Shown here: positions 36,882-37,007 of the stretch, in pieces
How positions within the stretch are numbered: the first letter of the stretch is position 1
Layout of the letters: each line of letters begins with the position of its first letter
DNA from: Rhynchobatus australiae
Taxonomy: Eukaryota
DNA length: 64,000 nt
Assembly: GCA_034780895.1 (NCBI GenBank)
Contig: JAUZTB010000107.1
Location: 71,082,470-71,146,469, forward strand
Reading direction: 5' to 3'
The notes under the pieces: generated by a model
The model's input: the letters and a program-made list of their open reading frames with translations, nothing else
What the model was told of the DNA's origin: nothing
The model's database searches: none
Translations under genes and position numbers: made by a program

Positions 36882-37007
36882 CCTCGGTTTGCTCCCAGTC
36901 GCCCCTGGTCTAATGGAACCCGTCTCCTGGTATCTGCAGAGGATTTTAGAGACACAACCGTGGGAGACCCTCAGCTGCCGGGAGATGACACACGGTCTGA
37001 TGCCGTG
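36882..37007 (-). CDS. pax3: Pax3/7-family gene, exon 2, visible 3' part of the paired domain ([42 protein letters not shown]); 5' part lies in N-gap 37008-37383
   Basis: 42 codons nearly identical to the PAX3/7 PAI subdomain; GTAAG donor at 36881-36877, phase 0. Expected exon start ~37114 falls inside the gap. Confidence 0.95.

Follow-up and report, generated by a model that had tools for sequence, protein, structure and literature searches.

The Pax3 gene of the ray Rhynchobatus australiae encodes a paired domain whose linker, joining the PAI and RED subdomains, has been rebuilt: the canonical GAIGGSKP reads GATGSKP, one codon shorter and with threonine in place of isoleucine, and two further substitutions (V>M and T>I) follow in the second half of the linker. 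The change is virtually certain to be real and elasmobranch-wide, so that a whole vertebrate lineage has fixed four linker changes, a deletion included, while PAI and the homeodomain did not move. Few DNA-contacting segments in animals are as resistant to change as the paired-domain linker, single changes in it cause human disease, and Pax3 is essential to the regulation of muscle and neural crest.

Structure of the Pax3 gene

The window, that is, the whole stretch of 64,000 nucleotides analysed here, contains exons 1-4 of Pax3 (Table 1), and the gene is a normal, expressed ray Pax3. The protein encoded by exon 1 is identical to P0135, which is common to Mobula and Hypanus. Exon 1 holds one codon more than bony-vertebrate Pax3, located before the paired domain; from GQxY to GFP there are four residues in all 23 scorable elasmobranch proteins and three in all 95 scorable bony ones, and owing to this extra codon the glutamine discussed below remains residue 108. 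The two three-helix subdomains of the paired domain were recognized as PF00292 on the matching proteins, and exon 4 encodes the octapeptide HSIDGILA expected of the Pax3/7 class. In an AlphaFold model of the skate protein P0131 the helices occupy residues 54-65, 70-77, 81-94, 112-124, 130-139 and 151-162, and the model matches 1PDN by Foldseek with an E value of 5e-14. Modelled in this way without DNA, residues 102-109 have a pLDDT below 50 (pTM 0.35), and the linker is not confidently placed, which makes the model uninformative on linker register.

Neither a homeodomain nor later Pax3 exons were found downstream, in window positions 1-34560 (34.5 kb); the missing exons are either separated by a very long intron 4 or hidden in gaps. 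Full-length Pax3 orthologues carry the PF00046 homeodomain, and the spliced contig from sequencing run X14 runs on from exon 4 into exon 5 sequence. Within intron 2, 151 nt (35771-35921) match a contig from run X15, derived from another organism, with zero differences, and possibly represent a conserved non-coding element. A broad CpG-rich domain spans the 5' part of Pax3, with 38-75 CpG per 2 kb across window positions 26001-42000 and mostly 5-17 elsewhere. Open frames scattered over the window (e.g., 30940-31251, plus strand) appear to be decayed LINE/SINE-like elements.

Table 1. Pax3 features and the adjoining assembly gap in the window.
Feature	Position	Strand	Basis
Pax3 exon 1, coding part, 29 codons + 1 nt	37986..38073	-	100% to ray protein P0135
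Assembly gap (376 N) covering the 5' part of exon 2	37008..37383	.	N run
Exon 2, visible 3' part: end of PAI and first linker half, 42 codons, phase-0 GT donor	36882..37007	-	
Altered linker codons P-G-A-T-G-S-K-P-R	36882..36908	-	read from minus strand
Thr codon ACT of the altered linker	36899-36897	-	
Intron 2 acceptor AAG/CAA (ATG next), Gln codon CAA	35358..35363	-	DNA sequence and X14 joint
Exon 3, 130 nt: fixed Q, second linker half with V>M and T>I, RED helices 4-5	35231..35360	-	
Exon 4, 135 nt: RED helix 6, acidic stretch, octapeptide HSIDGILA	34561..34695	-	

The altered linker

Read on the minus strand from 36908 to 36882, exon 2 ends in cca ggg gcg act ggg agc aaa ccg agg, with the GT donor (gtaagt) immediately after. 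One codon of the glycine region is absent, the exon ends in GATGSKPR, and the window Pax3 has T-G-S-K-P in place of the canonical minor-groove motif I/V-G-G-S-K-P. Between the histidine that follows the gap and the donor 42 codons were counted (the C-terminal end being a run of 10 residues), and all four solved paired-domain structures among the matches (Prd, Pax5, Pax6 and Pax8 chains) align with a single gap at the linker site. When all codings of G-A-I-G-G-S were enumerated, none gave Thr through a single 3-nt deletion; the change thus took two events or more, one of them a deletion and another a substitution. A sequence-only reading of this DNA had reported the same codon deletion with I>T, an exon end one codon short, and a position in the segment that enters the DNA minor groove; on all three points we agree, the Pax6 linker being described as making extensive minor-groove contacts (PMC4901127).

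Four of the 19 listed sequencing runs (X1, X2, X14 and X15) were aligned to the window, of which X14 and X15 are taken as RNA runs by guess, no run being recorded as RNA. The X1 contig, which may derive from the window's own sample, spans 36291-36968 with no other letter and no gap; that of X2, from another organism, spans 36867-37007 with two other letters and no gap; and that of X14, from a third organism, is spliced, joins 36882 to 35360 and shows no difference over 36882-37007. The linker site and exon 2 lie outside the contigs of X15. As the earlier reading had warned, the site is close to an assembly gap (about 95-125 nt from the run of 376 N), but an assembly error beside this gap, or an allele private to one individual, is hardly conceivable given ungapped contigs from three organisms and identical residues in 15 named species and in the catshark cDNA-type entry BAM15710.1. 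Both grounds for refutation named by that reading, an error of assembly and a change confined to one haplotype, can be set aside, and its treatment of the change as local to one genome gives way to a change common to all sharks and rays sampled.

Distribution across species and paralogues

Among the matches listed, GATGSKPR is present in 26 of 26 elasmobranch Pax3 proteins. A 100% match to the exon is found in three of the 120 listed clusters (3474 matches in total), each of them elasmobranch Pax3; of their 99 members 26 were examined (15 of 88 in the main cluster); the 15 named species comprise 8 sharks, Heptranchias included, and 7 batoids. GAIGGSKP occurs in all 98 scorable bony-vertebrate Pax3 proteins (101 in total, three unscored) and in 26 of 26 chondrichthyan Pax7 proteins. 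More widely, the GG pair is retained in 140 of 147 paired-domain representatives (150 were fetched, of which two had no anchors and one was misaligned), and those exceptions that could be named belong to the cnidarian Pax3-like/PaxD proteins. The GG pair is missing, with linker length equal or nearly so, in P0534, P0538, P0539, P0541, P0547, P0557 and P0553; P0547 is a Xenia Pax3-like protein (XP_046839320.1) with the linker GTSGSPKP, and P0557 clusters with Anthopleura Pax-D1. The Pax7 of the killifish Austrofundulus limnaeus (P0013) has GATGGSKP, with I>T and no deletion, and this substitution is of separate origin. For Mustelus asterias there are two Pax3 records under different names, P0140 and P0142, which agree in the length of their longest contig and represent either a local duplicate or a retained haplotig.

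Published exon lengths suggest that the chimaera probably carries the altered linker as well. Callorhinchus has a Pax3 gene (PMC3759438), and in Table S4 of PMC6010424, where the N-terminus of XP_007887991.1 looks wrong and domain limits are not uniform across rows, exon 2 of this Pax3 is given 77 residues against 78 in the other full-exon jawed-vertebrate rows, exon 3 is given 43 residues, and the paired box extends over 220-346 (127) in Pax3 and 34-161 (128) in Pax7. No separate chimaera Pax3 cluster appeared among the 120 matches listed and no chimaera sequence among the 15 of 88 main-cluster members, nor was one found in the searchable supplementary files of PMC6925180 and PMC4122933.

The glutamine switch and PAI-RED spacing

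Vertebrate Pax3 and Pax7 include or skip a glutamine at the intron 2/exon 3 boundary, the Q+ form being the commoner, and mouse Q- Pax3 is reported to bind more strongly to sites that engage both PAI and RED (PMC5852603); Q and GL isoforms of Pax7 have also been described (PMC10415112). In the window Pax3 the Gln codon ends in A, so no second AG follows three bases on; the nearest other AGs lie 16 nt downstream and 49 nt upstream of the acceptor, both out of frame, and there is no tandem acceptor for Q+/Q- splicing. At the DNA level the acceptor was read in the window and three close relatives; X1, X2 and X15 list no other letter at its bases, and Q is retained across the X14 joint. All 25 scorable elasmobranch Pax3 proteins are Q+, while the 101 bony Pax3 proteins comprise 82 Q+, 16 Q- and three unscored and the 26 chondrichthyan Pax7 proteins 24 Q+ and two Q-, in rows that are non-independent and drawn from incomplete database isoform lists that can miss Q-. 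It is likely that Q is fixed in all elasmobranch Pax3. The primary paper on binding by the Q- isoform is said to be that of Vogan et al. in 1996.

The paired domain spans 125 residues in all 25 elasmobranch Pax3 proteins, the same as in the Q- isoform, the Q+ span being 126; among 148 anchored paired-domain representatives 123 have this length and 21 are one residue longer. Taken together, the missing codon and the constant Q leave the PAI-RED spacing exactly that of the Q- isoform. Altered PAI/RED spacing had been offered among the consequences of the deletion, a claim which needs correction, since the glutamine at the start of exon 3, which had been missed, is fixed: the net spacing is the common length of Q-, Prd and Pax6. 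What elasmobranch Pax3 has lost is the long Q+ form and the Q switch itself, which is retained in fish, amphibians, birds and mammals and in shark Pax7. The same total length is not the same geometry, a residue having been lost upstream of SKP and gained downstream of it.

Phylogeny and pattern of change

Of 30 aligned database proteins, 29 entered a tree, a short lamprey row being omitted; the window's partial protein was not among the rows. The Pax3 clade of this tree (support 97/100), made up of 8 elasmobranch and 11 bony rows, is separate from the Pax7 of sharks and chimaera. A third Pax3/7 paralogue, considered since exon 4 looks Pax7-like, was ruled out by this tree. The elasmobranch Pax3 stem measures 0.11 changes per column, against 0.036 for the ray-finned and 0.024 for the lobe-finned stem.

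To place the changes along the protein, 11 elasmobranch Pax3, 10 bony Pax3 and 7 Pax7 sequences were aligned and the comparison was confined to columns that do not vary inside either Pax3 group, an elasmobranch state being scored as derived where the bony Pax3 state is shared with Pax7. Derived states occupy 4 of 16 linker columns (I>T, the deletion, V>M and T>I) and none of the 304 others in PAI, RED, the interdomain region, the homeodomain and the C-terminus (Fisher p 4e-6, for a region picked after the finding had been seen and for four changes that are non-independent). V>M and T>I alone give 2/14 against 0/304 (p about 0.002, by hand). Neither PAI nor the homeodomain has a derived change (0 of 60 columns in each), and both are also invariant; a looser count of elasmobranch-specific residues gives 7/59 between the domains, 15/194 in the C-terminus and 2/50 in RED. 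Among the 11 elasmobranch sequences only 1 of 18 linker columns varies, and RED has 2 variable columns of 50, compared with 10 of 50 among the 10 bony sequences. A linker that changed and was then frozen is constant but different, a pattern which fits a functional or compensated shift rather than relaxation.

Possible effects on DNA binding

In a deep mutational scan of PAX6, which contains substitutions and no deletions, I71, the position occupied here by threonine, is the most striking specificity-switch position, I71T scoring +1.10 on the LE9 site and -0.34 on BLX (PMC11219921). In the same data G72 tolerates Ala, Cys, Gln, Pro and Ser on LE9 and no change on BLX, where all 19 substitutions of G72 and all 19 of G73 score -1.8 to -2.4; taken singly, V78M (-2.01/-1.39) and T80I (-1.44/-0.10) are damaging or site-dependent, and the changed residues fall within about 3 A bins of DNA (PMC11219921). 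PAX6 G72S is listed as pathogenic. Pax3 has Gly where PAX6 has Arg69, and R69G scores -1.94 on LE9 (PMC11219921); with this difference beside the site and a scan without deletions, the scores transfer poorly. An ungapped register, in which S, K, P and R would each be shifted by one place, is unlikely, as it mimics G73S, S74K, K75P and R77Q, which score -1.2 to -2.3 on both PAX6 sites (PMC11219921). As these mimics are damaging, G-S-K-P-R most likely stays in its minor-groove register, and the deletion would be taken up at A-I-G. The PAX6 data show that the positions matter, and for the combination of changes they are compatible with retuned binding, with uncoupling of RED or with ordinary binding; the damaging single changes may reflect loss of RED docking as well as retuning.

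We take the linker to have been rebuilt on the stem leading to sharks and rays, and probably on that of all cartilaginous fishes, and to have been held fixed since. The deletion and the fixed glutamine would compensate each other in length, and with the short linker hard-wired, no splice switch would be needed for both PAI and RED to reach DNA. The threonine and the single glycine may alter minor-groove reading, and the preferred sequence or shape of the half-site spacer would shift with it. There is an even chance that binding preference is measurably shifted with RED still engaged, through the hard-wired short linker and altered minor-groove contacts. The sequence-only reading had also proposed altered DNA specificity, and as a possibility this proposal stands: the positions do switch site preference in PAX6, and in the present protein they may do so.

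It is possible, if doubtful, that the linker drifted under compensation instead, a slightly harmful deletion having been offset by the fixed glutamine and neighbouring substitutions, with binding of the ordinary Q- kind and unchanged targets. Net length is indeed restored, shark Pax3 expression in hypobranchial muscle precursors parallels that of the amniote orthologue (PMC5816939), and linker changes at constant length are tolerated elsewhere, as in the Xenia and killifish proteins described above, but the changed residues lie close to DNA, PAX6 I71 changes alter site preference, and the Q+/Q- switch is lost in any case. Overall, the chance of a neutral outcome is fair.

An unlikely reading is that the rebuilt linker docks poorly, so that Pax3 binds mainly by PAI and the homeodomain, like Prd; that full PAI+RED sites would then be left to Pax7 is likewise improbable. 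Changes of PAX6 G72, G73 and V78 are null-like on a SELEX site, Drosophila Prd binds DNA mainly through PAI, which makes its main contacts (PMC4901127), and elasmobranch Pax7, with its canonical linker and both Q forms, would be at hand. Poor docking is nevertheless at odds with a RED more conserved among elasmobranchs than among bony vertebrates, with the freezing of the new linker and with a total length that is exactly the RED-engaging Q- value. Relaxed selection or decay of a redundant gene, which the earlier reading had allowed for, is very improbable, for although the elasmobranch stem exceeds other Pax3 stems three- to fourfold in length, no PAI or homeodomain column is changed or variable (0/60 in each), the new linker is frozen, open frames encode full-length proteins in sharks, skates and rays, and the gene has a spliced transcript (X14) and embryonic expression.

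Expression and significance

The window Pax3 gene is spliced, as seen in the X14 contig. Met is a Pax3 target. In sharks, fin-muscle precursors have no clear Met expression (weak), and the lamprey is described likewise (PMC6004694); since the lamprey, which has the canonical linker, shares low Met, a connection between Met and the altered linker is weak and at most a lead. Catshark Pax3 marks the precursors of hypobranchial muscle (PMC5816939).

The altered linker has been printed, gap included, in a supplementary alignment of PMC6010424, and the passages of that paper on the linker, deletion, glutamine, shark and Scyliorhinus carry no remark on the change. No description of the altered linker, and no main text printing its motif, was found in a literature search that had most subscription journals and all supplements outside it. 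The sequence itself is already in public records; as far as the literature search reached, the linker change is newly remarked here.

Shark and skate Pax3 is often a stand-in for the ancestral jawed-vertebrate state, and at its DNA-binding surface it is derived. In effect, nature has here run an experiment on the part that linker length and sequence play in Pax specificity and on the purpose of the Q+/Q- switch, and the indel in the linker is a clean clade marker. A far-reaching version of the retuning proposal, namely that all cartilaginous fishes rewired the Pax3 linker once, turning an ancient splice switch into a hard-coded short linker with new specificity and a different target set that contributes to chondrichthyan muscle-precursor or neural-crest traits, must be considered unlikely as a whole. 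Such a rewiring would date to over 400 million years ago.

Comparison with known systems

The closest known sequences are the elasmobranch 'Pax-3b' RefSeq proteins and Scyliorhinus torazame BAM15710.1, whose exon 2 and exon 3 sequence is identical to that of the window; there is no difference at the linker site, and the change is present in these records but unannotated. Bony-vertebrate PAX3 is the orthologue, with the same exon plan, a PAI and homeodomain identical in the alignments and, in its Q- isoform, the same domain length; its linker reads GAIGGSKPK(Q)VTT, against a different stretch of 12 residues in elasmobranchs, and it attains the short length by skipping Q downstream of SKP, whereas elasmobranch Pax3 does so by a genomic deletion upstream. 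Chondrichthyan Pax7, a paralogue, shares with the window Pax3 the R at the end of exon 2 and the A in the linker, states also found in the lamprey, but differs in retaining GAIGGSKP and both Q forms. Prd (1PDN), PAX6 (6PAX) and PAX5 (1K78) have the same fold, six helices and the same total linker length, yet all have I-G-G-S-K-P. The cnidarian Pax3-like/PaxD proteins (Xenia, Anthopleura Pax-D1) lost GG independently at near-constant length, but with other residues, in a distant lineage and in domains that are far more divergent overall.
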